Shown one piece after another: positions 4,399 to 57,933 of a DNA stretch of 64,000 nucleotides (position 1 is its first letter; every line of letters begins with the position of its first letter). The notes beneath the pieces were generated by a model that worked only from the letters and a program-made list of their open reading frames with translations, made no database searches and had not been told where the DNA came from. Source of the stretch: an uncultured Planctomycetia bacterium (GTDB lineage: Bacteria > Omnitrophota > Gorgyraeia > Tantalellales > Tantalellaceae); NCBI GenBank assembly GCA_964421015.1, contig CAYQUS010000001.1, positions 364,726-428,725 on the forward strand. The letters run 5' to 3'. Position numbers and translations under genes: made by a program.

Positions 4399-4448
4399 TC
4401 GACCTTAACCTGAACCTCAACCTCTTTCTGCTTCCCCCTTCTTACTTC

Positions 4449-34151: not shown

Positions 34152-35521
34152 TACGATACAACTTCCCCCTTAAACGTATTCGGACTTGCGCCCGTGACTT
34201 GAACATTCACGATTTTCCCGATAAGATCTTCCCCTCCCGGAAAAACACAAGTAACGTTGCTTCTCGTCCTTCCCATCATCTCTTCTCCGGACATCCGGCT
34301 TTTGCCCTCGACCAGGACTTCCACCGTCCTTCCGATAAACTCTTTGTTTTTCTTAAGGGATATACTCCTCTGAAGGGCCAAAAGCTCGGTGTTACGCCTC
34401 TTTTTTTCCTCTTCCGGCACGTCATCCGCAAGACATGCCGACATTGCGGGGGGTCTTGGGGAATACTTGAATATAAAAGCGGCGTTATATCCTATTTCCT
34501 CGACCGCTTTTCTCGTAGCTTCGTAATCTCTTTCCTTTTCGGAAGGGAACCCCACTATGATATCGGTGCTAAGGCCGCCTTCCGGAACGGTCTTACGGTA
34601 ACTTTCCACTTTTTTTAGATAATCTTCATACTTATATTTCCTGTTCATAAGATCGAGTATCTTGTCTGACCCGGACTGAAGCGGAAGATGCAGGCTTTCG
34701 CATACCTTTCCGAGGTCTCTCATAGCCCTGAAAAGCGGCATACCGGCGTCCTTGGGGTGGCTCGTAACAAAACGTATGCGCTCTATGCCCCTAACCTTGT
34801 TGGCCGCCTCAAGTATATCCGGAAAAGTGGTATCGCTATTGAGCCTTTTACCGTAAGAGTTAACGTTCTGTCCCAAAAGAGTGACTTCTTTGCATCCCCT
34901 GTCCGCGAGAGCCCATATTTCCTCGAGTATGTCGCGTTTCGTGCGTGACACCTCCCTGCCCCTTACATGCGGCACAATGCAGTAGGAACAAAAATTGTCA
35001 CAGCCGTACATAATGTTGACAAAAGCCGAGAGCTCCCCTTTTGTATGCCCCGCTGAATCACCCTTGGCGGACTTGCGCTTACCTCCGAGAGCGGCCGAAC
35101 GCTCTCCGGCAATGGACTTCTCTATAAGTTCGGGAATGTCGTAAATATTTCCCGGCCCGCAGATAATATCCACCATGGGGTATTCTTTAAGCAGCATTTC
35201 CTTATGCCTCTCGGCCATGCATCCTACTACGCCTATCCTGAAATCCGGATCTTTCTTTCTACGGGAAGCCAGCTTGTGCAGGTTCCCCGTCACCCTGTCT
35301 TCGGCATGCTGACGGACACTGCACGTATTGAACAGCACAACACCGGCCTCATCCTCGTTATAGGTAAACTCATATCCCTTCCCGGCCAGAACTCCCGTAA
35401 TTATTTCTGAATCCCTGAAGTTCATTTGACATCCGAAGGTGCGCAAAAGTATACGCTTTCCATGACCCGGCTTGCCCTCGGATTTGCCTGTATTGGTGTC
35501 GTTTCGCTCTTTTTCTGCCAT
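34151..35521 (-). CDS. miaB: tRNA-i6A37 methylthiotransferase MiaB (radical SAM MTTase)
   Basis: 'RTFGCQMN' UPF0004 N-domain, 'CDNFCSYC' radical SAM motif, TRAM C-terminus. The N-terminal 23 aa overlap the recombinase 3' end; an internal TTG start (LRTFGCQMN) is possible. Confidence 0.85.
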   Translation of the reverse strand: MAEKERNDTNTGKSEGKPGHGKRILLRTFGCQMNFRDSEIITGVLAGKGYEFTYNEDEAGVVLFNTCSVRQHAEDRVTGNLHKLASRRKKDPDFRIGVVGCMAERHKEMLLKEYPMVDIICGPGNIYDIPELIEKSIAGERSAALGGKRKSAKGDSAGHTKGELSAFVNIMYGCDNFCSYCIVPHVRGREVSRTKRDILEEIWALADRGCKEVTLLGQNVNSYGKRLNSDTTFPDILEAANKVRGIERIRFVTSHPKDAGMPLFRAMRDLGKVCESLHLPLQSGSDKILDLMNRKYKYEDYLKKVESYRKTVPEGGLSTDIIVGFPSEKERDYEATRKAVEEIGYNAAFIFKYSPRPPAMSACLADDVPEEEKKRRNTELLALQRSISLKKNKEFIGRTVEVLVEGKSRMSGEEMMGRTRSNVTCVFPGGEDLIGKIVNVQVTGASPNTFKGEVVS

Positions 35522-37101
35522 TTTAACCCCTCTTCATAACACATTTTCCAAGGTTCGTTGATCTCGACCTTGACGATCTCTTTGTTTTGAATGTAAATGC
35601 CCTTAAAGATGATCCTCATGAACGTTTTGACGAGGTAATCCATCTTTTCACTGCTCGGATTGCTCCGTAGGCAAAGCAAAAAGTCCTGCGTTGCCTTGAC
35701 CAGATTCACCGCATTACGCTTTTCAAGGATCTTGATTTGAATCGACTTCACATCCTGACGAAGCTTCTTCTCCTCGTTTCTCAAAAGCTCGGCCCGATCC
35801 TTGTAGATATCAATATTGATCTTGTCCTCCGAGAAAACCTCGTAAAGTCCTTTTTGCTTCTCGATATTTCTGGCGAGATCCTTCTCTTTGCCTTCCAACT
35901 CTTCAATAATCTTATGCTCCGGCTCGGTCGCGCTAAGTTTAATGACGTCGCTCAATTCTTCGATAACATGCAAGTTTTTGCTGATGGTGTCAATGATGTC
36001 CCAAACTTGCTTAGTGAGAACGTCGGCGCGAACCGCCTTATTCGAGCAATTGACATACGACACGCCAAGCGCCGAGCACGCATACCACGGCCGCCTCATC
36101 TTTGTGCGATGATTGCATGTGATCATGAGCCCGCGGTAATTGCGGCCGCATTCATTGCATTTGACCACACCGGACAAGTGATACACATTATTCCGGAAAC
36201 GGACAACCGCATTCGTGCGGTTACGCGCTAAAAGCTTCTGCGCGGCATCGTACATCTCTTGCGTAACAATCGGCTCGTGGGCGTTGGGAACTTCGATCAC
36301 CTTTGACGGATCATTATTGACGTAGCAATACCCTTTGCCCTCGCCATTTTTTGTCTTGCGTTTCTTATCATAATGCCGCCGGTTCCACGTGATCGTGCCC
36401 AAGTAGACCTTGCTATGCAAAATATCTGAAATAAACTTGCCGTAAAACCTGCCACCTTGCCTCGCCGAAACTCCAAGATGATAATAATGCCCGGCGATCT
36501 GCGCGGTGCTCTTACCGCCTAAATATTGATCGTAAATATCTCTGACAATCTTTGCCTCTTCCGGATGAATCTCGAGCTTCTTGGTTTCTTTATTGTGACG
36601 ATAACCATACGGAGCAAAGCGAGCGCCTTGCCAATGCCCGCGCTTAACACCCATGACCATACCCGGGAATACGCGCTCAACCAGACGATTGCGCTCAAAC
36701 TCCGCGCAACTTCCAAGCATCTGGATAGCCATCTTACCTGCGCTGGATGTTGTGTCAAACGGCTCAGTCGCTGACTTATAGCCAATGCCAAGCGTCTCAA
36801 ATTCTTCCAGCAAGCCCAACAGGTCCTTGAGCCGCCTGCTCAAACGATCCTGTTTATACACCAAGACCAGATCGAACATCTTAATCCGCGCATCAAAAAG
36901 AAGCTTCTTGAGCGCCGGTCTGTCCATATTGCCGCCCGAGAAACCATCATCCATGTAAACATCCCGGCCGGACATACTGCAAACAACATCCCAGCCGAAG
37001 TTCTTCGCGTACTGCAACAGATAATTCCTCTGCACCTCCAGCGAAAAACCTTCCCGGGCTTGATCCTCTGTACTGACTCTCGTATATAGTGCGACTTTCA
37101 C
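35422..37101 (-). CDS. Large serine recombinase (resolvase/invertase N-domain plus recombinase and zinc-ribbon domains)
   Basis: 'MKVALYTRVSTEDQ' catalytic Ser; 559 aa; Cys-rich region 'CNECGRNYRGLMITCNHR'. Confidence 0.85.
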   Translation of the reverse strand: MKVALYTRVSTEDQAREGFSLEVQRNYLLQYAKNFGWDVVCSMSGRDVYMDDGFSGGNMDRPALKKLLFDARIKMFDLVLVYKQDRLSRRLKDLLGLLEEFETLGIGYKSATEPFDTTSSAGKMAIQMLGSCAEFERNRLVERVFPGMVMGVKRGHWQGARFAPYGYRHNKETKKLEIHPEEAKIVRDIYDQYLGGKSTAQIAGHYYHLGVSARQGGRFYGKFISDILHSKVYLGTITWNRRHYDKKRKTKNGEGKGYCYVNNDPSKVIEVPNAHEPIVTQEMYDAAQKLLARNRTNAVVRFRNNVYHLSGVVKCNECGRNYRGLMITCNHRTKMRRPWYACSALGVSYVNCSNKAVRADVLTKQVWDIIDTISKNLHVIEELSDVIKLSATEPEHKIIEELEGKEKDLARNIEKQKGLYEVFSEDKINIDIYKDRAELLRNEEKKLRQDVKSIQIKILEKRNAVNLVKATQDFLLCLRSNPSSEKMDYLVKTFMRIIFKGIYIQNKEIVKVEINEPWKMCYEEGLKWQKKSETTPIQANPRASRVMESVYFCAPSDVK

Positions 37102-37322
37102 TATTCTTCCTTTAGCGTCTCACGCCACTCTTTAATCTTGGCGATACACTCGTCCGTAAACACCGGCCAATCTTTGTAATCGCGCTTTGGCTTAACCCAG
37201 CCCTTGCGGATCCAATTGATCATGGTCTGCCGGTGAACGCCCAACATCTTTGCCGTCTCTGTCATGGTGTAAGTTTTCATTTTGGCATCCTCTAATGGTG
37301 CCCAGTATACCGTATTATACAA
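37101..37322 (-). CDS. Small HTH DNA-binding protein (excisionase/AlpA/MerR-like)
   Basis: 'MTETAKMLGVHRQTMINWIRKGWVKPKR' HTH_17-like; it overlaps the recombinase start. Confidence 0.6.
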   Translation of the reverse strand: MYNTVYWAPLEDAKMKTYTMTETAKMLGVHRQTMINWIRKGWVKPKRDYKDWPVFTDECIAKIKEWRETLKEE

Positions 37323-37333
37323 CCCTATACAAG

Positions 37334-37549
37334 CTATTTTATCTTCTCCACGTCATAGCAATTGATGAACATCCTCGACAATAGCTCAATCCCCTCATCA
37401 AACGATTTATGCGCCTCTTGGATTTCAGCACAAGACAAACCACGGCTTTTGAGCTTTATTTCTAAAGCCTCCCAGCCCCGCAGGGTAACCGCCTGATCCT
37501 TATTTGTGCTTGCATCCTTGTCCATTTTTCCTACTGCCCAATAGGACAT
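37334..37549 (-). CDS. Hypothetical 71-aa protein
   Basis: ORF only. The start codon is embedded in a GGACAT repeat/hairpin and no SD is visible, so it is doubtful. Confidence 0.25.
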   Translation of the reverse strand: MSYWAVGKMDKDASTNKDQAVTLRGWEALEIKLKSRGLSCAEIQEAHKSFDEGIELLSRMFINCYDVEKIK

Positions 37550-37763
37550 TCGGACATTTCAAATGTCCGGTTGTGTCCGGTTTTACTGACACACTGACAT
37601 GACTCGTGTCAGTGAATGTCAGTCAAAACACCCTCCAAAACCCATCAAATACCCAATAATTGACGCTTTTTCCGCAAAAAACGCCTATTTTGCGCCTTCT
37701 TGACCTCATTCTGACGCTCTCCCGATAACCCCATATGACATGACATCGCTTTTTGAAATTTTG

Positions 37764-37828
37764 TATCACTGACAGAGCGCGCCTCGCCCGACCCTCGGCC
37801 GACACCCCCTTCCAAGGACCCGCGAACC
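37764..37828. repeat. Direct repeat A (about 65 bp, roughly 80% identical to 57044-57106)
   Basis: Shared blocks tatcactg...cgcgcctcgcccgaccctc...ttccaaggaccc..gaacc. Confidence 0.7.
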
Positions 37829-37968
37829 GGCATCGAGCAACCAGTGACAACAATGACATTTTTTCTCACGGTTATCTTCTTACTTTCCACACTCAACCCC
37901 TTTGCTCCTTACTCTTAACCTACGAACACAATTAATGAAAATTCCTGTCATAATCGTCATAGCCGTCA

Positions 37969-40098
37969 CTAAAACGGCCGCTCCGAATAATCGACCTCAC
38001 CCTCCCTGCGGACGCGTATGCCGTCCCACCGGCGAGACGCGCCACAACGCCCCTTGTTAACCGAAGGATATTGACGCAACAACTCCCGGCCAAACATGAT
38101 CTTGCTAAGCGGCCGGTACTCACTCTCAAGACACCAGTCCCGATAAGCCACATACAAGGCGTCACTGCCCACATCCGCTTGAGCGTCTAAAACACATTGC
38201 TCCTCAACGAAAATAATGACGTTATTGTTCTCCTTGCGATAGGCGTCCTTCACGGTCTGCATGGACGCGCTCTCCTCAAAATACCCGCGCTTCCTTAATC
38301 GCGTAAGACCGTTAAGCGACCACAAGAAGATCCCGTCCAGCTCGCTGGCCACAATCTTGTGCTTTAGCTTGGGATCACGTTCCTCTATGGAAAACTGCCG
38401 ATTAAACGGAAGGATTAAAAGACGCCGGTAATACCCCTCGGTCTTATCCCCGACGCGCGGCATGTTATTGGTTGAGAAAAGAAGCTTGCAGTAAGGTTTG
38501 AATTGAAACGGTTGGCCGTATTTTTCGTCAGCGGAGATCGTATCGCCGGTCACGATCGCCTTAAACATATTGTCATAGACATTGGTCTTGGCATTGGTTT
38601 CAAGGCTGATATTGACTAATTTGTCCCGAAGCCGGGCGATGTAATGGGAATCGTTAAACTTCTCAAGCGGGATGGATGAACAATTGTCCTTGCCAATAAG
38701 CTCCTCAAGCACATACAAAACAACGCTCTTGCCGTTGGCCCCCTCGCCAAAGAGAAAAAGCGCCTTTTCATAATCATTGTCCCGGGTCAGGCAATAGCCG
38801 AAATACTCCTGCAAGAGCATGATCCGGGCCGCGTCGCTCTCAAAGATCTGATCCAGACTTTTCTGCCACAACAAACATTCGGCGTTCTCGCGGTATGTCA
38901 CATTTAGCTGATTAATGGAATAGACATCCGCCGAATGCGGCAAGAGCTTCATCTTGTCGATGTCATAAAGCCCGTTTTTGACATTAAAGAGCGTGATGCC
39001 ATTGATGATGTCCGGCTTAACAAAAGTCTCTGTCTTAAGCGCGACAAGAACATTGCGAAGCCTGCTTGCTGAAAAACCAGCCCCGCACGCGTCCTTGATC
39101 CACTTCTGCACCTCCTCGACAAACAGCGGCCGGTAACATCCGCCTTTGTATTCATAATAGGTATCAGCGAAGTTGATCAGCCGGTGATGCTTGAGAATCT
39201 CGTCAGCGATTTCATTGGCATTAACTTTTCGTGCGATAAGCAGACTTGGCCGCGACGGCGCATAGACTTCCCGGCAATCATTGACCGCTTTTTCGATGAC
39301 AGATTGTCCATATGTCCGGCCATCGCCAAAATGCTTCTCGTCCCACTTGGGCCGCATGAGTCCGGACTGGCGAAAGAGCGAATCCATCTGCCCGGCGTCC
39401 TTGCCCGTCCAGAAGGCCAGCTTATTGCATAACGCCAGATCCGCTTCGCTTTGAGAGGGATAATCGTTCTGCCACTGGCCGGAATAGAGCCGCTGAAACC
39501 TCTCCGCGTCTTTGCTTTTGGCGATCAAGGAAAGAATGTCGTCCGCGGGCACTTTATCTACATACCGGCCGAATATCTCTTTAAGCGCTTCGGTGCATTC
39601 ATTAAGCTCAGCCGGATAATTTTCAAGACGGTTGCCGGTAACGGTAAAGAATCGACCCTTCGTATAAATCTCCAAGCCGATCTTTGAAATCTTGCAGGCC
39701 CGGGCGATCTTGCCTTTACAAAGGATATGAACACCTGTGCCGCTTGGCGAATACTCGGAATATGAATTAAGCGCGCTTAAAATTTCTACCGCATACGGCG
39801 CGATCGCTCCGTCCTTGACGCAGTGGTCGATATCCACACCTACATACGGCGGCTGAAATACAAAGCCCACCCCCGCATACCCGCGCTGAAACGCAAGGTC
39901 GCTTGCAGTCGTATAATCCGTCCATGTCCTTGGATCGTTTGTTTTGGCAGGACGTCCGGTCAGGACGTTCATCGGGACCTTGTCGGTGCGGTCTTTATTT
40001 CGCCTGAGTTGATAACCAACCCAACAAGGCAATTTGAGCAATTCCTGAGGAATGACCTCTTCGATCTTTCTCTTCTCTTTTCTTCTCTCGTCTTCCAT
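37969..40098 (-). CDS. Bifunctional primase-polymerase (PrimPol) / D5_N / P4-family SF3 helicase replication protein
   Basis: 'VGFVFQPPYVGVDIDHC' Prim-Pol DxD motif; 'LFGEGANGKSV' P4/D5-type Walker A; 709 aa. Confidence 0.8.
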   Translation of the reverse strand: MEDERRKEKRKIEEVIPQELLKLPCWVGYQLRRNKDRTDKVPMNVLTGRPAKTNDPRTWTDYTTASDLAFQRGYAGVGFVFQPPYVGVDIDHCVKDGAIAPYAVEILSALNSYSEYSPSGTGVHILCKGKIARACKISKIGLEIYTKGRFFTVTGNRLENYPAELNECTEALKEIFGRYVDKVPADDILSLIAKSKDAERFQRLYSGQWQNDYPSQSEADLALCNKLAFWTGKDAGQMDSLFRQSGLMRPKWDEKHFGDGRTYGQSVIEKAVNDCREVYAPSRPSLLIARKVNANEIADEILKHHRLINFADTYYEYKGGCYRPLFVEEVQKWIKDACGAGFSASRLRNVLVALKTETFVKPDIINGITLFNVKNGLYDIDKMKLLPHSADVYSINQLNVTYRENAECLLWQKSLDQIFESDAARIMLLQEYFGYCLTRDNDYEKALFLFGEGANGKSVVLYVLEELIGKDNCSSIPLEKFNDSHYIARLRDKLVNISLETNAKTNVYDNMFKAIVTGDTISADEKYGQPFQFKPYCKLLFSTNNMPRVGDKTEGYYRRLLILPFNRQFSIEERDPKLKHKIVASELDGIFLWSLNGLTRLRKRGYFEESASMQTVKDAYRKENNNVIIFVEEQCVLDAQADVGSDALYVAYRDWCLESEYRPLSKIMFGRELLRQYPSVNKGRCGASRRWDGIRVRREGEVDYSERPF

Positions 40099-40100
40099 CG

Positions 40101-40331: not shown

Positions 40332-40344
40332 GGTTTCAATGCCT

Positions 40345-40830
40345 CCTACTAGCTACATACGCAATGTTTTGGGAAACTGACGAAAATATTTTCATTTTTT
40401 TGACCCTCTACTAGCTACATACGACGTTTTTGGTAAACCTGCCGGAAATATTTTCACTTTCTTCACTAATTTCACTCCCCTAAGCGTATATTCCGGATTT
40501 TTCCGGGAAGTGTCGGAACTTTCTGCCCCCTCATAGGTGATTACGCAAAATTTCCAAAGTGTCGATGCTTTTGGCCAACTATTTTTGCCTTCCATAGGTG
40601 AAGACGATATTTTTCTCAAAGTGTCGGGGCCCTCTACCATAGGTATTACGTTTTCGGGTCCAAAATTTCGCATAATCCTTCAACTTTCCTTCCCCAAGAC
40701 GTATATACGACCTTTTTTGCCAAAGTGTCCCACCCCTCACCTATTAACACGCAAAAAATCGAAAAGTGTAACACCCCTCATGCCCTCCCATAGATGATTA
40801 CAGGAAAAATCCGAAAGTGTCGGGGCTAAA
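40345..40830. repeat. Iteron-like repeat array (putative replication origin)
   Basis: Two 62-bp tandem units starting with ctactagctacatacg (40345, 40407), then at least six spaced copies of AAAGTGTC(G/C) with a CATAGGTGATTACG sub-motif (40507, 40546, 40618, 40722, 40762, 40814). Confidence 0.65.
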
Positions 40831-41143: not shown

Positions 41144-41524
41144 TTAATCTTCATGCTCAAGAGGCTTGTCCGGGATCATGTCATAAACCATAGTCTGAAT
41201 CTCATATTCAAACCAGTCCTGAAACACCTTCCAAGACCTGTCTTTGGGCCACATTTCAGGATCCGTATACCAGCCGCCAAGCTCGTGCTCAAATATTTCT
41301 ACGCAATGCTTCTTCAGAAACTTTGCGTACTTCTCGTTTTCCTCATAAGCCGGGATCAGATACACATGCTTTGAATCAAAACCTTCGGTTTCAACCTCAT
41401 CCGGCTTCATCTCATGCTCAGGCCCGTCATATTCCTTGCTGGTGTAGACCAGCCAGTCAATGAACGGCTTCTTGAGCTTGACGATCAAAGCGGCGCGATT
41501 GATATCAGGAAATTCTTCTAACAT
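41144..41524 (-). CDS. Hypothetical 126-aa acidic protein, last gene of the coupled operon
   Basis: ORF only; the hairpin cgataaaatc-gccag-gattttatcg (40980-41010) lies downstream. Confidence 0.4.
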   Translation of the reverse strand: MLEEFPDINRAALIVKLKKPFIDWLVYTSKEYDGPEHEMKPDEVETEGFDSKHVYLIPAYEENEKYAKFLKKHCVEIFEHELGGWYTDPEMWPKDRSWKVFQDWFEYEIQTMVYDMIPDKPLEHED

Positions 41525-41531
41525 AATACCC

Positions 41532-42122
41532 TCATTCTAAGCGTAAGAAGGCTGAAACTGTGCCGTCAGCATTTAAATCCCAGAAACGTGGCATGCGAGG
41601 TTTTAGCTTGCCATCGGGAGTTATATCTGCGCCAAAGATTTCACCTTCAATTATTGCTAACCGTTTAAGATTATCTTGAGCCAGTGAAGAAAAATCAATG
41701 CCGCTAACTTTTGGACTCATGTGATGGACGTCATTGCGGTAACTACCATATATGCCCCTTGCGGAATCAGCGCATGATTTTGATATTGTTTCATTTTGCT
41801 CTAACTCGTTAATCAGTTCTTCTATTGATTTCGCTCCGCCGTCACCCATATTTTTATTCAACCCGATTCGGCCTGCAATAAACACGATAATACCCTCATT
41901 AATGCTATGGCTCATCATTACTGCGGCAATAAAATGACCGTCGCGGTACAAATTAATACACTCTGCTGATGCCGCGGCGAAATGATGATTACCAATTATC
42001 CATTGATGTCCAATCTCTATGTATCTGTCGACTCGCTGATTGACTGAAGAATTAAAATCAGAGATTATCGCTTCTTTGACTTGTTGCATTTTTATTGCTT
42101 TCTGAATATCTGAATTTTGCAT
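41532..42122 (-). CDS. Hypothetical 196-aa protein, possible HEPN-like (weak)
   Basis: 'GSYRNDVHHM' fits an Rx4H pattern; otherwise unassigned. Confidence 0.35.
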   Translation of the reverse strand: MQNSDIQKAIKMQQVKEAIISDFNSSVNQRVDRYIEIGHQWIIGNHHFAAASAECINLYRDGHFIAAVMMSHSINEGIIVFIAGRIGLNKNMGDGGAKSIEELINELEQNETISKSCADSARGIYGSYRNDVHHMSPKVSGIDFSSLAQDNLKRLAIIEGEIFGADITPDGKLKPRMPRFWDLNADGTVSAFLRLE

Positions 42123-42123
42123 A

Positions 42124-43149: not shown

Positions 43150-43151
43150 GC

Positions 43152-43574
43152 TTACCAGCTTGAATTTGTAGCATCAATATAAATATTTTTTCCTTCAATC
43201 TTAAAAGAGTCACAACAAACAAATGTTTCTAATGCATTTACATCTGAAGATAAAGTTCCGAAATACAAGGAATCGCCATGCGCTTTAGCACACTTTATTT
43301 TTCCGACTAAGTCTGCAGAAAAAACATCAGCAATAAAAACATCCCATTGCCTGCCCTTGTTCCAGCGATGAGAAGCAACTGCCGCATCGAACGGCTCCAT
43401 ATTTGAAGCGAACATTTTAAACAACTCTAAAAACATGGGATAAACCGGAGATTTCTTATTGATGCCAACGCATTTCATGAATTGATCCTCTGTAAATTCC
43501 TGACCTTTTTTCAGGACCACAACAAAACATGTAGATGAGCTATTTGTAACGAAATCAAACTTTATTTTCATCAC
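43152..43574 (-). CDS. Hypothetical 140-aa protein
   Basis: ORF, translationally coupled (20-nt overlap with the upstream gene). Confidence 0.4.
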   Translation of the reverse strand: MMKIKFDFVTNSSSTCFVVVLKKGQEFTEDQFMKCVGINKKSPVYPMFLELFKMFASNMEPFDAAVASHRWNKGRQWDVFIADVFSADLVGKIKCAKAHGDSLYFGTLSSDVNALETFVCCDSFKIEGKNIYIDATNSSW

Positions 43575-49180: not shown

Positions 49181-50337
49181 GTTTTGCTCACGAATAATTG
49201 ATTAATAATCTTATTTTGAATTTCGATTGTTCTATCGATAAAAGCCTCTATTGATTTCTTTTGCTTTACAATTCTATCTAACTCTTTGACTATCCTATTT
49301 TGTTCTTTTAATTCGGGAACAGGCACTTCCACAGACCTAAAAACATTGGCATTCATTTTAAAATTAACTTGTTGAGCGACATCTTTAGTAAAGTATTCTG
49401 TCCTACGTAAAAAATTAAACAAATAGAACCCATATTCCGGCAAAAATAGTTCTCTATTAGACCTAATTCGCAAAACAAAGGATGCGTAGGTATAACTGCC
49501 ATCTAAATCAAATATGGCCGTTTTCCCGACATGAGCTGGCGATCCAGATCGCCAATTAAGTAATAGATCTCCCTTCTTTAAAAAGAATTGGTCTTTTTTG
49601 GGTGGTTCAATGTAAACCTTCTTAGACATCTCAATATCGCCTTCAAGTGAAATGTTGGCTCCTGTTATGATCGGCCAACCAATTTTAGAATCTTTGTTAT
49701 CTGCTACAGATTCTGAAATTCCATAATCAACCTGAGCAATTTCTTCGATTCTGCCAACTTTCCATTTTCGCTTCTTAAAAATATCCCATTCTAAGGATTG
49801 CCTTAATTGCCCAAGACGCAATGATATCTTTGAATATGCCTCTATTGCGGAATTAATGCTCCATAGCAAGCTGGCAATATTTTCTTGTTCTTTTAAAGGC
49901 GGCACCAATAAAGTATACTTTGCTAAATCTCTCCATTTTACTCGTTTTGACATCGTGCCAGCAGCATGAGAATTTGCATATTGCCACAATGGTTCTCCAT
50001 TAAAAATAAAAGCCAAAAAACCAGGAACAATCGCTTCTTTATTCTCCCTAATAACAAAAGCATCTCCTGAACAAATACCATCGAAGTCGACCATTGACGC
50101 ACGTTTAAGGTATGCATTTCTACGAGCAAAGAGGATATCGCCTTTTTTAAAAAGTTTCATCGCGGATACTAAATTTTCAGTTGAACCCCATTTCTTAATT
50201 TTCAAATCCCCAGAAACAAAATGTTCAAGCCCAACAAAACGTTCATACCCTGACTTAGACGGATTATCAATGCGCTCAGATATTTCTGTGGCAATCTCAC
50301 CCAAACATATCTTTTGCCATTTTTCGACATTAATCAT
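49177..50337 (-). CDS. hsdS: Type I R-M specificity subunit
   Basis: Two target-recognition-domain halves with conserved spacer helices ('LKEQENIASLL', 'LKEQNRIVKEL'). Confidence 0.85.
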   Translation of the reverse strand: MINVEKWQKICLGEIATEISERIDNPSKSGYERFVGLEHFVSGDLKIKKWGSTENLVSAMKLFKKGDILFARRNAYLKRASMVDFDGICSGDAFVIRENKEAIVPGFLAFIFNGEPLWQYANSHAAGTMSKRVKWRDLAKYTLLVPPLKEQENIASLLWSINSAIEAYSKISLRLGQLRQSLEWDIFKKRKWKVGRIEEIAQVDYGISESVADNKDSKIGWPIITGANISLEGDIEMSKKVYIEPPKKDQFFLKKGDLLLNWRSGSPAHVGKTAIFDLDGSYTYASFVLRIRSNRELFLPEYGFYLFNFLRRTEYFTKDVAQQVNFKMNANVFRSVEVPVPELKEQNRIVKELDRIVKQKKSIEAFIDRTIEIQNKIINQLFVSKT

Positions 50338-51796
50338 TAGACAATGCCTCTATTAAATTTAGCATTTCAACCTTTACTACATCTGATTTCAAGTCCCAAT
50401 TAGTTATGGCAGCTTTTAAATCACCACTCTGCGTACTTTCAGAGATGTGCCGCTGAACATAAAGTTGAACACTAAGATTTCCATTGTTCTTTAAAATATC
50501 TTTGGTTGATACAATTTTGCAAAATCGCTCAATATTCTTATGCCCCCTATACGCAGTTAAAATATTTTGTATGTTTTCCTTCTCCAAATAACTCATTGTT
50601 TTTTCTTTTCTTATCTCATCAACCGCGTCAATGAAAATAACTTTATGGCGAATTTCCTTTTTCTTGTTACAAATCACAATACAAGAAACCATTGATGAGT
50701 TATAAAAGAGATTGGGACCCATCCCAATAACAGCCTCAACGACATCAGATTCAATCATTTTCTTTCGCATCTCAATTTCAGAATCCCGAAACAGTATCCC
50801 ATGTGGCCAAAGAACTGCACACCGGCCATTTTTATCATCAAGACTTTTAATAATGTGCTGCTGAAACGCGTAATCCGCGCACCCTTGCGGCGGCGTGCCG
50901 TAGATATTTCGGCCGTAAGGATCTTTTTCAAATTCCGTCCTGTTCCATGACTTGATCGAATACGGCGGATTAGCGAGGATGATATTAAATTGCTTGAGCT
51001 TATCCTTTTCCAAAAATGCCGGATGTTTTAAGGTATCCCCGCGTGCAATCTTGAAATCCTCAATGCCGTGTAAGAACATATTCATCCGCGCGATAGCCGA
51101 CGTCATCAGGTTAAGTTCTTGTCCATAGAGCTTAAGCGACCGATATTCTTTCTTATCAGCCTTAAGTTTATTCACACAAGAAAGTAGCATGCCGCCTGAT
51201 CCGCACGTGGGGTCATAAATCGACTCGCCCGGCTTTGGATCCATGATCAGCGTCATTAAGTGGACAACCGTGCGGTTGGTATAAAACTCCGCGGCCGTAT
51301 GGCCACTGTCGTCCGCAAATTGCTTGATAAGAAATTCATAGCCCTGTCCAAGTTCATCATTGGGAACATTCTTAATAGATAATGTCTCTGATGAAAAATG
51401 CTCCATCAGGTTAATAAGCGTCTCATCGCTCAACCGATCTTTATTCGTCCACTGCGCATCACCAAATATGCCAAAAAGCGTATCCGGGTTGGCTTTTTCA
51501 ATCTGGCGCATGGCCTTCTCGATCGCCATGCCGACATTCTTTGTATTCTCGCGGGTATGCTTCCAATGCGCCCCCTTGGGTATCTGGAAACGGTGATTCT
51601 CGGCAAATTCGGCAAACTTCAAGTCCCCGCGTGATTCTTTAAGCGCGTTCTGATACTCTTCATCGTAAACATCACAAATACGCTTATAGAAAAGAAGCGG
51701 GAATATGTATTGTTTGTAATCTCCGGCATCAATCAGGCCACGCAACAGCGTTGCCGCTCCCCAGAGATATTTTTCTAATGCCTGTTGTGTCATCAT
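50330..51796 (-). CDS. hsdM: Type I R-M N6-adenine DNA methyltransferase, paralogue 1
   Basis: HsdM N-domain; 'DPTCGSGGML' (motif I); 'NPPYS' (motif IV); 'EFYTNRTVV' deviates from the usual FYTP. Confidence 0.9.
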   Translation of the reverse strand: MMTQQALEKYLWGAATLLRGLIDAGDYKQYIFPLLFYKRICDVYDEEYQNALKESRGDLKFAEFAENHRFQIPKGAHWKHTRENTKNVGMAIEKAMRQIEKANPDTLFGIFGDAQWTNKDRLSDETLINLMEHFSSETLSIKNVPNDELGQGYEFLIKQFADDSGHTAAEFYTNRTVVHLMTLIMDPKPGESIYDPTCGSGGMLLSCVNKLKADKKEYRSLKLYGQELNLMTSAIARMNMFLHGIEDFKIARGDTLKHPAFLEKDKLKQFNIILANPPYSIKSWNRTEFEKDPYGRNIYGTPPQGCADYAFQQHIIKSLDDKNGRCAVLWPHGILFRDSEIEMRKKMIESDVVEAVIGMGPNLFYNSSMVSCIVICNKKKEIRHKVIFIDAVDEIRKEKTMSYLEKENIQNILTAYRGHKNIERFCKIVSTKDILKNNGNLSVQLYVQRHISESTQSGDLKAAITNWDLKSDVVKVEMLNLIEALSND

Positions 51797-53286
51797 TTTA
51801 GTAATCCAAATTCCTTCAACTGTTCTTTCATTTTCTCTTCCGCTTTGACTGCTTCATTAAATGCCGCTTTAAGGTCCTTGAGCGCCTCTTTAACGCTGGG
51901 CAAATTGTCCTCAATCTTTTTTTCGACATAGAGCGGAATGTTCAAATTAAAATCATTGGCTTCAATATCCGATAGCGTCGCCACTTTGACATGATCTTGG
52001 ACGTCTTCATAGCCGCGATACCAGTCATAAATACATTTTATATGCTCTTCTTCGAGATAATTTTGCGCTCGCCCAATTCTGATCTGATCTGAAGCATCAA
52101 TAAAAAGAACCTTATCTCGCCTATCCTTCTTTTTCATTGCACGAAAGACTAAAATACAAGCCGCTAATTGTGTTCCATAAAATATGTTTTGTCCTAGTCC
52201 AATAATTGCTTCTAAAATATCCATCTTCAATAACTGCCTACGTATGTTGCCGTCTTTGTCCATCCGAGCCAATGTCCCCTGTGGCAAAACAACAGCTATC
52301 CGACCATTTGGATATTCCATCGACTTCACCATATGCTGAACCCAGGCCAAATCACCATTACTATCCGAGGGAACTCCTACAATATTGCGTCCATATGGAT
52401 CTTTTTCCCACAGGTCAGCGCCCCATTTCTTTAATGAAAACGGCGGATTGGCTATCACGCAATCAAATGTGGCAAGGTTATCCCCATTAAAGAAAGCCGG
52501 ATTGCGGAGAGTGTCATCGCGGACAATGGTAAAGTCCTCTACCCCATGCAAAAACATATTCATACGAGCAATTGTTGAGGTGGTAAGGTTCTTCTCTTGG
52601 CCAAAAATCTTGAGCGTCCGGCAATCCTGCTTCTTTTCTTTGAGATGGTTGATACATTCCAAAAGCATGCCGCCGGTACCGCAAGCCGGGTCATAAATTG
52701 ACTCTCCGGGCTTGGCATCGATAATCCGCCCCATTAGATTGACTACGGAACGCGGCGTATAAAACTCCCCCGCTTTCTTATTCGTTAAGTCAGCAAAGTG
52801 CTTGATCAAATATTCATACGCCTGACCAAGAATATCCGGTTCAATGTGGCCGTTAGCCAGATAGTATTGAGAGAAATGTTCAATGAGATTAATGAGAAGC
52901 TCGTCCGAAAGCCGGTCTTTATTCGTCCACTGGGCGTCGCCAAAGATGCCGTAAAGAAACTTCTGGTTAGCTTTCTCAATCTCGCGGAAAGCATATTGAA
53001 GCGCCTGCCCAACATTCTTTGTAACCTGCCGCACATCATTCCAGTGACAGTTCTCCGGGATAATGAACCGATGAAATTCCGGCAAGCTCGCATATTCCAC
53101 ATCTCCGCCCGACTCTTCTAAGGCTTGTTTGTATTCATCGTCATAGACGTCTGAAATGCGTTTGAAGAACAGAAGCGGGAATATATAAACCTTGAAGTCA
53201 GCCGCATCTACCGGGCCCTTGAGTATCCAAGCGGCTTTGGAGAGATATTGTTCGAGTTGCGAGAGGGTTATTTTGCCGTTGTTCAT
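51793..53286 (-). CDS. hsdM: Type I R-M N6-adenine DNA methyltransferase, paralogue 2
   Basis: 'EFYTPRSVV', 'DPACGTGGML', 'NPPFS'; about 50% identical to paralogue 1. Confidence 0.9.
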   Translation of the reverse strand: MNNGKITLSQLEQYLSKAAWILKGPVDAADFKVYIFPLLFFKRISDVYDDEYKQALEESGGDVEYASLPEFHRFIIPENCHWNDVRQVTKNVGQALQYAFREIEKANQKFLYGIFGDAQWTNKDRLSDELLINLIEHFSQYYLANGHIEPDILGQAYEYLIKHFADLTNKKAGEFYTPRSVVNLMGRIIDAKPGESIYDPACGTGGMLLECINHLKEKKQDCRTLKIFGQEKNLTTSTIARMNMFLHGVEDFTIVRDDTLRNPAFFNGDNLATFDCVIANPPFSLKKWGADLWEKDPYGRNIVGVPSDSNGDLAWVQHMVKSMEYPNGRIAVVLPQGTLARMDKDGNIRRQLLKMDILEAIIGLGQNIFYGTQLAACILVFRAMKKKDRRDKVLFIDASDQIRIGRAQNYLEEEHIKCIYDWYRGYEDVQDHVKVATLSDIEANDFNLNIPLYVEKKIEDNLPSVKEALKDLKAAFNEAVKAEEKMKEQLKEFGLLK

Positions 53287-54056
53287 AGCCCTCCCTGATC
53301 GGCAAAGCTGAAATGCTTGTCGCCTGCGATAATAATGTGATCCAGAAGCTTTATATCCAAGAGCTTCCCGGCATTGGACAAGTCTTGAGTGAATTTCTTG
53401 TCTTGCGTGCTAGGCGAGCATTCCGAGCTGGGATGGTTATGAACACAAACAATCGACTTGGCGAATTTCTGTAGCGCGGCGTGGATTATCTCACGGACAA
53501 TCGGGAATGCCTGATCAACGGTCCCAACGGCAGTATCCACGATATCGATAATGCGGTTATTACTATCAAGATAGACAACCTTAAAAACCTCTGTCTTAAG
53601 GTCGCGAAGCTGGGGCATGATGATATCCACAACATCCTTGGCAGAGGCGATCTTCTGCTTCCCGGTGGACACATCATCCTCGCGATAGCGCCGCCCGATT
53701 TCAAGCGCGGCCTGAATATGGGCAATCTTGGCCCCGCCCAAGCCTTTGAACTCTTTCCAGTCCCGGGCGTCGGTGTGGGCCATGTTGCGGAATGTGCTGA
53801 ATTTTTTAAGAATCTTGCGGGCGAGGTCAATGGCGCTGGTGCCCTGCGTGCCGGTGCGAAGAAGAATAGCCAGAAGCTCTGAATTACTCAAAGCCCCTGC
53901 ACCCTTCTTGAGGAGTTTCTCTCTCGGCCTGTCATCGGCAGGCCATGATTTTATCCCTGCTATTTTCTTCTCGTTTACCATTCTCTTCTCTATTCTTCTC
54001 TTCTCTCGAATTAACCCGTAATCAAACTGTCCTACGGAAGTACAAAGTGGCGACAC
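53283..54056 (-). CDS. radC: RadC-like JAB/MPN-domain protein
   Basis: 'HNHPSSECSPSTQD' JAMM-type motif; HhH-like N-terminus 'LSNSELLAILLRTG'. Confidence 0.8.
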   Translation of the reverse strand: MSPLCTSVGQFDYGLIREKRRIEKRMVNEKKIAGIKSWPADDRPREKLLKKGAGALSNSELLAILLRTGTQGTSAIDLARKILKKFSTFRNMAHTDARDWKEFKGLGGAKIAHIQAALEIGRRYREDDVSTGKQKIASAKDVVDIIMPQLRDLKTEVFKVVYLDSNNRIIDIVDTAVGTVDQAFPIVREIIHAALQKFAKSIVCVHNHPSSECSPSTQDKKFTQDLSNAGKLLDIKLLDHIIIAGDKHFSFADQGGL

Positions 54057-54541
54057 TTAATACGAATCTCTTTAAGCTCCTTCAGCACTGCCGCCAAATC
54101 AAACGATTCACCGCGAAACGTCAAAGCCTGCGCTAAAGGATCATACGCCCTATGATGATTGGTAGGGACGTTTCCAAAGATTGACTTAAATGGATCCACT
54201 GCCAAATCGCTGTAAACCGCTGAAGATTGCTTTTTGAACCAATCTTCTATTCGCTCGTCATAGTGCTCGAAATGATTGCGGAATTTGCGATCAGAAAGAA
54301 TGTTTCTCTCTGAAATTTTAAGTAACTCCCGCAATTTTTCGCCGCGTTCTTCATATCCCTTAGATGGCCATAAAATCTTCGATACGTTTCCAGCGGCCAC
54401 GAGAATCGATTGAATTGAACTCCAAACTTCAATCTGATCGAAATTGTCCTTGATCGCCGATAAACGTTTAGAAGCCAATTCTGCAATCTTTGATTGCGTT
54501 ACAATCTCACCTATAAAAACCGTTTCAGCAAGGGCCTGCAT
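54032..54541 (-). CDS. Hypothetical 169-aa protein, possible HEPN-like (weak)
   Basis: 'RKFRNHFEHYDE' contains Rx4H patterns; overlaps radC by 25 nt. Confidence 0.35.
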   Translation of the reverse strand: MQALAETVFIGEIVTQSKIAELASKRLSAIKDNFDQIEVWSSIQSILVAAGNVSKILWPSKGYEERGEKLRELLKISERNILSDRKFRNHFEHYDERIEDWFKKQSSAVYSDLAVDPFKSIFGNVPTNHHRAYDPLAQALTFRGESFDLAAVLKELKEIRIKCRHFVLP

Positions 54542-55079
54542 CTTTATTCCCCCCGCACTTCTTCTCTTCCTTCAAGAATGTTGCAATTACGGAACTGATC
54601 TGTTTAAACGCAACCGGATAATAGTCCCAGACCTCGACACAAAGATTCACGATTATTGAATTCTCGTTCAATCGTTTGATCTTATATTTTTCATGAACGT
54701 GGCCGCAGAAATTCCACGGCACGTTTGGGTCCGCATCCTCGGCCCGGTGCGTCATGCAGATATCCTTTGAGCCGTAGTGAATATAGACCTTCGAAATGAT
54801 CGTGTTGAGGCTGTTGTGCCGGTCATGATTGCCCTTGATGAAAATGAATTTACCGTTCAGCCTCTTTTCGAAATGCCTGTATTTCTCCTCGCCGCCTTCT
54901 TTGCCGCCCTTGAATATAAAGTCTCCGAGGAAAAAGACAGTATCTTCCGGCTTCACCCGCTCATTATGCTTGCGGATGATCGTCTCGTTCATTTCCTCGA
55001 CCGTCTCAAACGGCCGGTTGCAATACCGAATGATATTGGCATGCGAAAAGTGATAATCTGATGTCCACCAGTAGTTCAT
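54525..55079 (-). CDS. Calcineurin-like metallophosphoesterase
   Basis: 'TSDYHFSH', 'LGDFIF', 'GNHDRHN', 'GHVHE' motifs. Confidence 0.75.
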   Translation of the reverse strand: MNYWWTSDYHFSHANIIRYCNRPFETVEEMNETIIRKHNERVKPEDTVFFLGDFIFKGGKEGGEEKYRHFEKRLNGKFIFIKGNHDRHNSLNTIISKVYIHYGSKDICMTHRAEDADPNVPWNFCGHVHEKYKIKRLNENSIIVNLCVEVWDYYPVAFKQISSVIATFLKEEKKCGGNKDAGPC

Positions 55080-55100
55080 AATGCCCTGTATTTGCGAGTC

Positions 55101-56105
55101 TTAGCCCGACTCATTTTTCTTCTTCCCCTCAAGACGTTTTATCTCACGGTCAAAATCAGAAATGTAATCCTTATCTTGTTTCAATCGATAGACGCCATAT
55201 TCAGCTTCGGCTTTAAGCCTTGCTTCCAGCATACTTACTTTACCCTTATCCTTTAAGATCGGATAATCCGATAATTTTAAAAAACGGTCTAGAAATTCTT
55301 TCCAATCAGACATCATAGTCAATTGCTGTCTTTTTGCTCGAGTTTCGGCTAAATCCAAATACGCTGATATGATCCTATTCAACTCTTCTATATGCGCTTT
55401 GTTTAAATAGTTTTTAGCCACTGTCACATCGGACTTTAGTATCTTTCCATCCGGGGCATTCTTCCAAGTTGTAAGCCCCATGTATATTTTTTTCGCATCT
55501 GCGGTTGAATAAATAATCTCTGCCGCAGTCTTACCTGTAATCGCCCAATGGAGCTTGTTTTGTGTTTCAGCATAAAAATCCTTAGTCAACAACGCATTTT
55601 TATCGTAATCCGCTGAAAGAGCATAGATATCAGTAATTTTCTGATAAAATCTGCGTTCACTGGCGCGAATCTCCCTAATACGTTCGAGCAACTCATCAAA
55701 ATAGTCTTTACCGAACCTCTTACCTTGTTTGAGCCGCTGGTCATCCAACACAAAGCCCTTGATCATAAATTCTTTGAGTGTTTTTGTAGCCCATATTCTA
55801 AACTGTGTTGCTCTAACGCTATTGACCCGATACCCAACTGCAATGACAGCGTCAAGATTATAAAATGTTGTCTGATACTTCTTGCCATCTGCGGCAGTTA
55901 TTTCCATTTTGGAAACAACTGAAGACTCTTGTAATTCACCGCTATCAAAAATATTCTTTAGATGTTTACTAACAGCTGGTACGGCCACACCAAAAAGCTC
56001 AGCCATTTTCTTCTGAGTAAGCCAAAAAGTTTCGGCATTGTACACCACCTCAATCTGAACATTACCCTGGGGAGAGTTATAAAAAATAATATTGGATTCG
56101 CGCAT
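55101..56105 (-). CDS. rhuM: RhuM-family virulence protein
   Basis: 'IIFYNSPQGNVQIEVVYNAETFWLTQKKMAELFGV...NIFDSGEL...FYNLDAVIAVGYRVNS' closely matches the RhuM family N-terminus. Confidence 0.8.
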   Translation of the reverse strand: MRESNIIFYNSPQGNVQIEVVYNAETFWLTQKKMAELFGVAVPAVSKHLKNIFDSGELQESSVVSKMEITAADGKKYQTTFYNLDAVIAVGYRVNSVRATQFRIWATKTLKEFMIKGFVLDDQRLKQGKRFGKDYFDELLERIREIRASERRFYQKITDIYALSADYDKNALLTKDFYAETQNKLHWAITGKTAAEIIYSTADAKKIYMGLTTWKNAPDGKILKSDVTVAKNYLNKAHIEELNRIISAYLDLAETRAKRQQLTMMSDWKEFLDRFLKLSDYPILKDKGKVSMLEARLKAEAEYGVYRLKQDKDYISDFDREIKRLEGKKKNESG

Positions 56106-56112
56106 ACGTCTC

Positions 56113-56724
56113 CTATCTAATATCCTTTTGCTCTAACTTCTTTATTGTTTTCTCCATCCACGCCGGGGCATAACGAAGATCGCTCATCAGCTGTTTTTTA
56201 TCCTCGACCGATAATCTTCTTTTAAGTTTATTAATAATCTTGTCGTCGATGTTCTCCTGCTTTATATAACGCAAGGCTTGAATAACCAAGCCGCTCACGC
56301 GACCGGCAGTCGCCATATTCTTTGGCGATGTCTTCTTAAACATAATATGCCAGTTACCAACTTGAACCACCCGGGTAGAGCCATCTGTTAATAAAGCAAT
56401 CTTTGCCGGTACTTGGTCGGATAAGCCCAGCAAGTTGGCCGCGTATGCTCCGGAAGGTTGAATCTTAAGATTATCTTTTTCAGCAAGCGCGGCGGTAAGA
56501 CGCTCAACGCTTGGCGGCATCTCTCCAAAATCCGGATGCTTTCGTGGATAATCATAAAGCCCGCGCGCTAATCGGCGAATCTCACCAGATCGAACTAACC
56601 GGCTCAACGCCTGATCTACAGCGGCCCGATTGCCAAGATCAAGAAAATGACTAGGAGCAAACACCCAGCCTTTTTTCTTGCCGATAATCCGACGAAAAAT
56701 CTTGCTCTCAATAGATTCAGTCAT
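56113..56724 (-). CDS. AbiEi/DUF6088-family antitoxin-like wHTH regulator (no cognate AbiEii nucleotidyltransferase seen)
   Basis: 'SIESKIFRRI...GWVFAPSHFLDLGNRAAVDQALSRLVRSGEIRRLARGLYDYP' typical AbiEi N-terminal domain. Confidence 0.7.
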   Translation of the reverse strand: MTESIESKIFRRIIGKKKGWVFAPSHFLDLGNRAAVDQALSRLVRSGEIRRLARGLYDYPRKHPDFGEMPPSVERLTAALAEKDNLKIQPSGAYAANLLGLSDQVPAKIALLTDGSTRVVQVGNWHIMFKKTSPKNMATAGRVSGLVIQALRYIKQENIDDKIINKLKRRLSVEDKKQLMSDLRYAPAWMEKTIKKLEQKDIR

Positions 56725-56739
56725 ATTTAACTCTTTTTG

Positions 56740-56771
56740 ATGTCAGAAATAATATATCGCACTTCTGACAT
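56740..56771. promoter_or_regulatory. Inverted repeat operator upstream of the AbiEi-like gene
   Basis: ATGTCAGAA-N14-TTCTGACAT (perfect 9-bp arms), 16 nt upstream of the start codon. Confidence 0.55.
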
Positions 56772-57043
56772 AAAGTAAAGCTATTTCTACGCTCCACGGG
56801 CATAATTAACCCCGAAATGTCCACCGGCCGGGAATGTCCACTATTTACGAGATATTTCGATTTAATGGACATTTGCATGTCCATCCATGTCCATCAAAAC
56901 GCCCTTTTTGGGCCCTCCCGAACACCCGCAGGATACCCCTAAAATCGCCTGTTTTCCGACGCTGGACGCTTATTTTAGCCGGTTTGACCACTTATGCCCA
57001 AACCCCAAAAGTGATGGACATGGACATCAATTTGTCTGACCGC

Positions 57044-57106
57044 TATCACTGGCTCCCCGCGCCTCGCCCGACCCTCACCCAAGCCCCATTCCAAGGACCC
57101 TGAACC
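57044..57106. repeat. Direct repeat B (partner of 37764-37828)
   Basis: See repeat A; embedded in a GACAT/ATGTCC-rich non-coding border region. Confidence 0.7.
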
Positions 57107-57249
57107 GCTTCCAAGCATAAAAAATCCCCATGGCCACGCCTCTCCAGCTCTACCACAGGGACTTGAGTTGCTGATCGATGTTGATCCTTACAACGCCCCG
57201 ACAACCGCCGCCGCCAAGCTTGCCATCGCATTACTATAAATCTGCCACC

Positions 57250-57285
57250 GGCCAGCCGAAAGTCTTTATAAAGACTTTCGGCTGG
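57250..57285. repeat. 36-bp perfect palindrome GCCAGCCGAAAGTCTTTATAAAGACTTTCGGCTGGC
   Basis: Seen directly; about 75 bp 3' of the SET gene. Bidirectional terminator or recombination site. Confidence 0.7.
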
Positions 57286-57357
57286 CACATCGTTTCTTTC
57301 GTACACTCCGTATCCGACACTACTTCTGAATCCCGTCGTTCTAAGCCCGAAGCAAAC

Positions 57358-57933
57358 TTATCTTCCATATTCCACACCTCTTTTTTTCTCAAGTTGCAGC
57401 GGCAAGAATATCGATTTTCTCGCCAGGGCCTCTTTGAGCGGCTGCTCGACTTTATTTACAAGTTTTAGCGCGGCACTCACCTTTTCATCCCAGAACCTCT
57501 GGAGTTCTTTTGGAACAGGATGCTTGAAATCAACCACCTTGCAGCAATTACTCTCACCGCAGAAACACGGCATTTTTACATCATCATAAAAATCCCTGTA
57601 GTCGTAAGTAGCCTCTTCACCCTTCTTTATGTCTCTTACCACGATATCAAACCCGTATTCGGCCCCCAGGATGTTAGCGTTACACGAATGGTTAAGATAT
57701 CTCGTCTCGTCGCAAGGCAAAACAAATGTTCCGTCCTTTTTGCGGTAAGCGTAATCCAAAAGCGCCATTTTTTCTTTATCCGACATCCTGTAATACCCTA
57801 GCTCTTCCGCGGACCGCGTCCGGCATTTATCACACTCAAAACAGACTATTGTTCCTTTGGGTACGACCTCTTTCGCGAAAAGCCCCTTACCTTTATTCTT
57901 GGTTTCTTTGACCTCAAATAATCTCGCTATCAT
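57358..57933 (-). CDS. SET-domain protein (lysine methyltransferase fold)
   Basis: 'RYLNHSCNANI' and 'EEATYDY' SET motifs plus a Cys-rich post-SET region. Confidence 0.75.
   Translation of the reverse strand: MIARLFEVKETKNKGKGLFAKEVVPKGTIVCFECDKCRTRSAEELGYYRMSDKEKMALLDYAYRKKDGTFVLPCDETRYLNHSCNANILGAEYGFDIVVRDIKKGEEATYDYRDFYDDVKMPCFCGESNCCKVVDFKHPVPKELQRFWDEKVSAALKLVNKVEQPLKEALARKSIFLPLQLEKKRGVEYGR

Follow-up and report, generated by a model that had tools for sequence, protein, structure and literature searches.

The window analysed here is a 64,000-nucleotide (nt) stretch of DNA from an uncultured Omnitrophota bacterium (GenBank assembly GCA_964421015.1, contig CAYQUS010000001.1, positions 364,726 to 428,725). 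All long open reading frames (ORFs) between 30 and 60 kb of the window lie on the minus strand. Within this run a gene for a large serine recombinase overlaps the start of miaB, and the native start of miaB lies at the far end of the intervening block, next to a SET gene. A sequence-only reading of the window had taken 35422-57360 for an integrated element; the block is present, with its true ends slightly inside these positions, at 35430/35431 and 57253/57254. Based on the junctions and a comparison of the element's family, we consider it very probable that this 21.8-kb block is an integrative, self-replicating defence island that sits in miaB and rebuilds the gene it has entered. The evidence comes from the two junctions, the remnant of the native gene, the in-frame replacement of its start, the conservation of this replacement in the family and the near-identical backbones in other hosts. 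The features concerned are the following.

35405-35456, minus strand: attL (P arm, TG, B' arm), GTATACTTTTGCGCACCTTCGGA-TG-TCAAATGAACTTCAGGGATTC, with the crossover TG at 35431-35430
57228-57279, minus strand: attR (B arm, TG, P' arm), TATAAAGACTTTCGGC-TG-GCCGGTGGCAGATTTATAG, with the crossover TG at 57254-57253
57234-57290, minus strand: displaced native miaB 5' end, ATG...MCQPKVFIKTFG, then running into P' (WPVADL, stop)
57251-57286: perfect palindrome of 36 bp, 100% complementary, with the halves GCCAGCCGAAAGTCTTTAT and ATAAAGACTTTCGGCTGGC
34151-35521, minus strand: chimeric miaB, 456 aa; Pfam UPF0004, Radical_SAM and TRAM
35519-35535, minus strand: element-supplied Shine-Dalgarno (SD) sequence GAAGAGGGG (35535-35527) and ATG (35521-35519), spacing N5
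35422-37101, minus strand: large serine recombinase, 559 aa; Pfam Resolvase, Recombinase and Zn_ribbon_recom

Read on the minus strand, the junction on the miaB side is CTTTTGCGCACCTTCGGA-TG-TCAAATGAAC and that on the SET side is ATGTGCCAGCCGAAAGTCTTTATAAAGACTTTCGGC-TG-GCCGGTGGCAG. The outer halves of the junctions, when joined, give an ordinary miaB with the bacterial attachment site attB, AAAGACTTTCGGC-TG-TCAAATGAAC, and the inner halves give the attachment site of the element, attP, CTTTTGCGCACCTTCGGA-TG-GCCGGTGGCAG (reconstructed sequences TATAAAGACTTTCGGCTGTCAAATGAACTTC and TTTTGCGCACCTTCGGATGGCCGGTGGCAGAT, respectively). The attB consists of the miaB codons for K-T-F-G-C-Q-M-N. TG is the sole dinucleotide consistently common to the junctions, and the attP dyad, CCTTCGGA-TG-GCCGNTGG, is centred on it with imperfect symmetry. 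Judging from the junctions, cleavage would fall on the TG of the Cys codon in the T-F-G-C-Q-M-N motif. The attachment site is therefore placed inside the 5' end of miaB, as the sequence-only reading had proposed, and the native 12-codon start of the gene (57290-57255) is present at the far junction, 67 nt downstream of SET. This remnant, MCQPKVFIKTFG, fits the native MiaB N-termini of relatives, MSKK(V/I)F(I/L)(K/R)TFGCQMN, and because it follows SET directly the arrangement at the empty site can be rebuilt as SET-miaB.

The palindrome at 57251-57286 spans the native miaB remnant and the junction, ending 2 nt past the crossover into P'. It accounts for the unusual MCQP at the native start, in place of the MSKK of relatives, and could be the product of fold-back repair after integration. 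The same hairpin was considered as a terminator for SET and rejected; it consists of the native miaB start and the junction.

The miaB gene of the window is a chimera. Its codons 1-30 (35521-35432) are encoded by the element, start with MAEKERND and end in RILLRTFG, and host DNA begins with the TG of Cys31. The SD sequence and ATG are embedded in the recombinase codons E-E-G-L-K-W. An in-frame start preceded by an SD sequence is present in all 31 integrated relatives (29 ATG and 2 GTG), whose recombinases are 38-98% identical to that of the window, and a full-length downstream miaB with the CxxxCxxC motif follows in 28 of the 29 relatives with enough downstream sequence. The window MiaB keeps all nearly invariant residues. 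In keeping with the earlier suggestion that its N-terminal extension lies outside the conserved core, this extension, 22 residues long, is missing from the native MiaB of relatives, which start MSKKVFLRTFGCQMN. In an AlphaFold2 (AF2) model of the window MiaB, residues 1-20 are disordered (predicted local distance difference test, pLDDT, ~31), whereas the N-terminal domain has a strand at residues 23-29 (RILLRTF). The element residues reproduce the native (K/R)(V/I)x(I/L)(K/R)TFG strand. The Cys of FGCQMN is one of the three auxiliary [4Fe-4S] cluster ligands in the UPF0004 domain of methylthiotransferases, which explains the conservation of the TFGCQMN motif and hence of attB. A replacement N-terminus or promoter had been proposed for the element; the SD sequence, the ATG and the N-terminus were found, whereas a scan gave no convincing promoter. 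Terminator prediction placed none between the recombinase and miaB.

Several further observations concern MiaB proteins of the phylum. Many Omnitrophota MiaB are only 350-390 aa long and are without TRAM (L093, L095, L100, L103, L105, L106, L112 and others), and others (P0102, P0107-P0118) are 670-750 aa long with extra TPR and SPOR domains. In contig L096 (2465-2880), the miaB beside a near-identical element is truncated to 138 aa; it may be a pseudogene or an assembly error.

By its domain content the recombinase belongs to the large serine family. Its catalytic domain (PF00239, E = 3e-32) covers residues 3-156, with Y6 T7 R8 V9 S10 T11 invariant in 32 homologues and the nucleophilic Ser in a Y-x-R-x-S context. 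It also has PF07508 and PF13408, four invariant Cys (C315, C318, C342 and C352) and, in an AF2 model of the homologue P0126, long helices at 395-479. At E <= 1e-60 the recombinase has more than 400 homologues, of which almost all those with a named source come from Omnitrophota. The overlap of the recombinase and miaB ORFs noted in the sequence-only reading is exact, at 100 nt (35422-35521). The last three recombinase codons and the stop (DVK, stop) are host DNA, with the TGA lying within the host Met-Asn codons ATG-AAC. This is general in the family: the TGA within host ATG-AAY is the first stop at each of the 31 integrated loci and in ~100 of the 120 best full-length homologues listed, giving tails of the form P(S/T)xx(K/R) before the stop.

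Since the recombinase ORF runs across attP, its C-terminal tail changes upon integration. In the attP state the ORF extends 18-34 codons past the TG (...GRWxxY...), a length no greater than expected from read-through by chance. Across these 120 nt of overlap the third reading frame has two stops on average, so the open recombinase frame is not due to base composition alone. Only a small excess of synonymous changes in one subfamily hints at selection on the tail at the protein level. In the AF2 recombinase model the overlap stretch is a low-confidence linker, residues 534-562. When the long form was modelled, the P'-encoded tail was helical only at pLDDT 37-51, so that structural support for a function of the tail is lacking. 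Several elements (P0121, P0122, P0130, P0132 and P0142; L087 at ~250-330) have a repeat-like insert in the recombinase linker and miaB leader region that translates as (M/L)D(P/S/A)RFRG(D/N/H)D; it leaves the recombinase frame and the downstream miaB start unbroken.

The following sequence of events would be consistent with this arrangement. The recombinase would pair attP, at the very 3' end of its own ORF, with attB in miaB and exchange strands at the TG of the Cys codon. Integration would leave the native promoter and the first 12 codons stranded 21.8 kb upstream, at attR, and the P arm would bring in an SD sequence and an ATG, followed by a leader of 22 disordered residues and by RILLRTFG as the new first beta-strand. 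The new start would join the rest of miaB in frame, rebuilding the enzyme including the Cys after the junction, and the same ~100 nt would encode the unstructured C-terminal linker of the recombinase. The integrated recombinase ORF would stop at the host Met-Asn TGA, and the excised ORF would read into P' and gain ~20 residues. The miaB-miaA-hflX genes would then probably be transcribed from within the co-oriented element. Excision would be expected to use a helix-turn-helix (HTH) protein and replication a primase, both encoded by the element, and the chimeric MiaB is expected to be active.

Comparison with relatives gave both occupied and empty sites. The insertion-free relatives that the sequence-only reading had called for are represented by L085 and L086, from a related species (MiaB 77% identical), which have the empty site and a native miaB start. 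Related elements occupy the same miaB position in L083/L084, L087 and L088 (MiaB 66-80% identical). L082 has the same host miaB as the window (one substitution in 424 aa) with a different element variant, the two diverging just 5' of TTCGG. The near-identical elements were found in miaB of four other Omnitrophota hosts (L093-L096), not at a different locus. Their recombinases are 97-98% identical in protein to that of the window, and ungapped nt identity with the window is ~91% in the 1.3 kb before the junction and ~30% after it. The host MiaB proteins are 40-44% identical to that of the window and 37-54% identical among themselves, and host GC contents range from 36 to 55%; the host of L095 is of an Omnitrophota lineage whose MiaB is without the TRAM domain. 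Apart from a single substitution in L095, where TTC has become TAC, all five elements are identical through TTCGGA-TG; they vary at the base that follows, which is the wobble position of the Cys codon.

An attP-type junction follows the recombinase in 14 contigs, and its right arm, TG-RCCGNTGG, is the right side of the window attR. One of these contigs, L099, matches the window backbone up to exactly 35430 and then continues with the P' arm; farther on it has the window segment 57100-56861. A complete but decayed relative of 5.6 kb, L157, has both junctions, a remnant of the native miaB 5' end and a frameshifted recombinase. Exact look-ups of the window MiaB, recombinase and MiaA gave no match, and a scan of GTDB genomes gave no close relative, the best MiaB being 55% identical. 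The MiaB homologues assign the window to Omnitrophota.

A distant subfamily with recombinases 42-44% identical to that of the window (L129, 130-306 versus 4389-4565; also L127 and L135) has an inverted copy of the recombinase 3' end and P arm, 78-177 nt long and 98-100% identical, fused to a P' arm at a distance of 1.6-2.8 kb on the upstream side of the recombinase. Such a copy might reflect either a switch that works by inversion or an array in head-to-head orientation. L173, a 17.3-kb IMG/VR contig, has a recombinase of 74% identity together with an attP-type junction. Upstream of this recombinase are a T7 gp14-like internal virion protein and two large unassigned ORFs, and downstream of it is a tyrosine integrase, from which it follows that the miaB-targeting module also occurs on a likely podovirus.

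The position of the crossover could be read differently, with strand exchange occurring within a TTCGG pentamer (the Phe-Gly codons) that the window attL and attR share besides the TG, with one differing base between the two (A at attL, C at attR). We regard this as very unlikely. An A invariably separates TTCGG from TG in the five near-identical elements in five hosts, whereas the next two wobble positions vary, so the A belongs to the element arm. In addition, the left arms of L157 differ at -1, -4 and -7 (ACCTTCGGC versus ACATTTGGA), breaking the pentamer and keeping the TG, and it is the TG, not TTCGG, that forms the centre of the attP dyad. The insertion might also merely disrupt miaB, the upstream ATG and the extension being fortuitous and the gene silent or decaying. 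The 138-aa miaB of L096 and the failure to identify a promoter for the chimeric gene would fit such a disruption, but with the in-frame start and SD sequence kept at every integrated locus across the whole range of recombinase identity, the full-length gene and its radical-SAM motif kept in 28 of 29, replacement residues that copy the native strand and a window MiaB with its nearly invariant residues in place, we find it scarcely credible. The gp14-like neighbour of the L173 recombinase brings to mind a prophage, whether complete or defective, in place of a plasmid-like island or satellite. However, capsid, portal, terminase and tail families had no Pfam match among the element ORFs of at least 60 aa, a search with PHROGs of the Pfam-unassigned ORFs and the primase-helicase matched only the primase-helicase to a family of known function, and the 21.8 kb are filled with replication and defence genes; a prophage thus seems distinctly improbable.

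It is unlikely, too, that the block is a fixed remnant that is no longer mobile, that is, a domesticated island. Consistent with such a remnant, virion, packaging and conjugation genes were not found (relaxase, coupling protein and type IV secretion genes were absent from the Pfam matches of any element ORF), neither a same-species empty site nor a circle was found, the palindrome overlaps attR, and decayed relatives such as L157 exist. However, the window recombinase is full length with all invariant residues, both att arms fit the family consensus, the same site in the same species is occupied by a different variant in L082, and backbones ~90% identical in nt sequence in four distantly related hosts imply recent transfer. 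Some results weigh against a mobile island that rebuilds miaB. A sigma-70 scan found no convincing miaB promoter inside the element, although such a scan cannot settle promoters in Omnitrophota and, like the terminator scan, it did no better here than on shuffled sequences. None of the 14 attP-type contigs has terminal repeats, and they could be tandem arrays instead of circles. The P' sides of L101 and L119 are nearly identical while their recombinases are very different (71% and 43% identical to that of the window), a pattern that suggests tandem arrays or module exchange at attP. Exact searches for attB and attP in IMG/VR gave nothing, and no same-species empty site or excised circle was recovered; Logan contig L001, found through the SET protein, stops inside the attR palindrome and is therefore uninformative on the empty site. 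The palindrome itself could affect excision.

The HTH_17/MerR-like protein encoded immediately upstream of the recombinase is the sole candidate for a recombination directionality factor, or it may be a regulator. Genes for HTH proteins of 58-73 aa lie upstream of the recombinase also in L082-L084, L089 and L090-L092. We tentatively raise the possibility, which we think rather unlikely, that the position of attP in the ORF acts as a sensor of the integration state, that transcription of miaB-miaA-hflX depends on the element and that the lineage is a non-disruptive integrase of wide host range. If so, the excised element would make a long recombinase of a predicted 578 aa, possibly with a helical P'-encoded tail (...PSDGRWQIYSNAMASLAAAVVGAL), and the integrated element a short form of 559 aa ending in three host residues; how active or stable the recombinase is might then depend on the form. 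As the attB motif is invariant and present in most bacterial miaB genes, the lineage could serve a wide range of hosts without disrupting the target.

In domain composition (Resolvase, Recombinase, zinc ribbon and a long helical region) the recombinase resembles those of phiC31, Bxb1, A118, SPbeta (SprA) and TP901-1 and the Int of the phage-inducible chromosomal island-like element (PLE). As with other large serine integrases of phages and islands, the att sites are short and imperfectly symmetric around a central dinucleotide, the target is a protein-coding gene and a small excision protein is expected. Classic elements with large serine integrases disrupt their targets (comK, spsM, groEL1, sigK) without rebuilding them, and their attP lies outside the integrase ORF. 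A closer parallel in strategy, though not in enzyme family, is found in the dusA-specific islands and prophages of Proteobacteria, which use tyrosine integrases (Farrugia et al., 2015, PMC4482086). There, as here, insertion is at the 5' end of a gene for a tRNA-modification enzyme, the element puts its own sequence, with a substitute first beta-strand, in place of the 5' end of the target, a native 5' remnant lies at the far junction, and a single integrase lineage keeps to the same conserved gene in many hosts. Unlike the dusA islands, the present system has a large serine recombinase, Omnitrophota hosts, miaB as target, a crossover on the Cys codon of an invariant motif and an attP within the recombinase ORF. 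The only other tRNA-modification targets given in that study are mnmE, rimO and rluA; miaB is not among them. Placement of attP inside an ORF of the element, with integration altering the protein made, is shared with SSV-type archaeal integrases and the integration-dependent immunity of mycobacteriophages, both of which involve tyrosine integrases; integration splits the SSV integrase, and the repressor of phage BPs loses a C-terminal tag (PMC7253208; PMC4557955). In contrast to these, the present system has a serine recombinase in which nothing but the unstructured C-terminal tail would change, from ~22 residues to 3. In the literature that we searched, miaB is nowhere described as a target of a serine recombinase.

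The attP, attB and crossover could be defined from sequence alone for a large, previously undescribed serine-recombinase lineage whose natural landing site is an invariant motif of a near-universal gene. The element would be one with a serine integrase whose target gene is rebuilt and not broken, ~100 nt serving at once as the binding arm of the recombinase, the N-terminus of MiaB and the tail of the recombinase. The comparison of hosts also points to the recent movement of one element among deeply diverged lineages of a phylum that has hardly any cultured members. Recombinases that target miaB may help to integrate DNA into uncultured or non-model bacteria, as no pre-installed sites would be needed and the target would not be inactivated.

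The remaining features of the island and its flanks are listed below.

37101-37322, minus strand: HTH_17/MerR-like protein, 73 aa, abutting the recombinase start (Pfam)
37969-40098, minus strand: PrimPol (NrS-1-like) and D5-type primase-helicase (Pfam; PHROG 1829 DNA primase, E = 7e-167)
40346-40466: tandem repeat pair, 59-62 nt, 78% alike, upstream of the DUF5659 and primase genes (repeat search)
41144-46214, minus strand: low-GC variable cargo block with two unassigned ORFs, a radical-SAM protein, two small ORFs and an Avs2-like STAND protein
43980-46214, minus strand: Avs2-like STAND protein (PADLOC Avs2, 5e-22)
46211-53286, minus strand: type I restriction-modification (R-M) system, with hsdR 46211-49180, hsdS 49177-50337 and two hsdM 50330-53286 (Pfam)
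53283-56724, minus strand: RadC, a 169-aa unassigned ORF, metallophosphatase, RhuM and AbiEi/DUF6088 (Pfam)
55101-56105, minus strand: RhuM
56113-56724, minus strand: AbiEi/DUF6088 (PADLOC AbiEi, 2e-74)
41144-42122, 43152-43983 and 54032-54541: ORFs without annotation
56817-57027: seven GGACAT/ATGTCC motifs in 210 nt near the P' end
Flank on the miaB side, minus strand: miaB 34151-35521, RAYT-like gene 33519-34151, miaA and hflX
Flank on the other side, minus strand: SET 57358-57933 and GIY-YIG

The mobile-element genes named in the sequence-only reading (serine recombinase, HTH, PrimPol, R-M, RhuM and AbiEi) were borne out by Pfam, PADLOC and PHROGs, as were the housekeeping flanks (miaB-RAYT-miaA-hflX and SET/GIY-YIG) by Pfam. 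Its iterons were borne out only in part, by one tandem pair, 40346-40466, and the seven-motif cluster at 56817-57027. The tandem pair is a possible origin or operator. Three further GGACAT/ATGTCC motifs lie within 25 nt at 37544-37568, and ATGGACAT has six matches in the window, five of them within 56817-57027, where 1.7 would be expected in the whole window. The segment with the motif cluster is 88% conserved in L099, and a related 44-nt repeat is present at 37764-37807 and 57044-57087. The motifs are likely to be binding sites for a regulator of the element. Rfam and tRNA scans of the window were empty.

The conserved backbone comprises the recombinase, HTH protein, small ORFs, primase-helicase and DUF5659 together with the type I R-M system, of which hsdR, at 87-88% nt identity, is also present in L094 and L099. 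L094 is collinear with the window except that other DNA stands in place of the low-GC block at 41.5-46.2 kb, and relatives have different cargo adjoining P'. Because the cargo differs among relatives and one relative lies beside the gp14-like gene, we consider the recombinase module to be common to several element types. The copy in the window looks like a replicative defence island or satellite. Compared with phage satellites (P4-like, phage-inducible chromosomal islands or PLE), which are islands of 10-20 kb, its integrase, primase-helicase and size fit, but no hijacking genes are recognisable and several ORFs are unassigned. GC content is mosaic, with blocks of 36-39% at 42-46 kb and 49-51 kb versus 47-50% in the flanks. 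The radical-SAM protein of the cargo block has a weak match to pVip (6e-10, PADLOC). A tandem pair of full-length hsdM genes (488 and 497 aa; 50330-53286) stands beside one hsdS and one hsdR, and a low-GC (37%) block contains hsdS and the first hsdM. In the flank, the RAYT-like gene (IS200 Y1 transposase; 33519-34151) lies between miaB and miaA and overlaps the miaA start; as miaA directly follows miaB in L083, L084 and L087, this gene is a separate insertion in the window.

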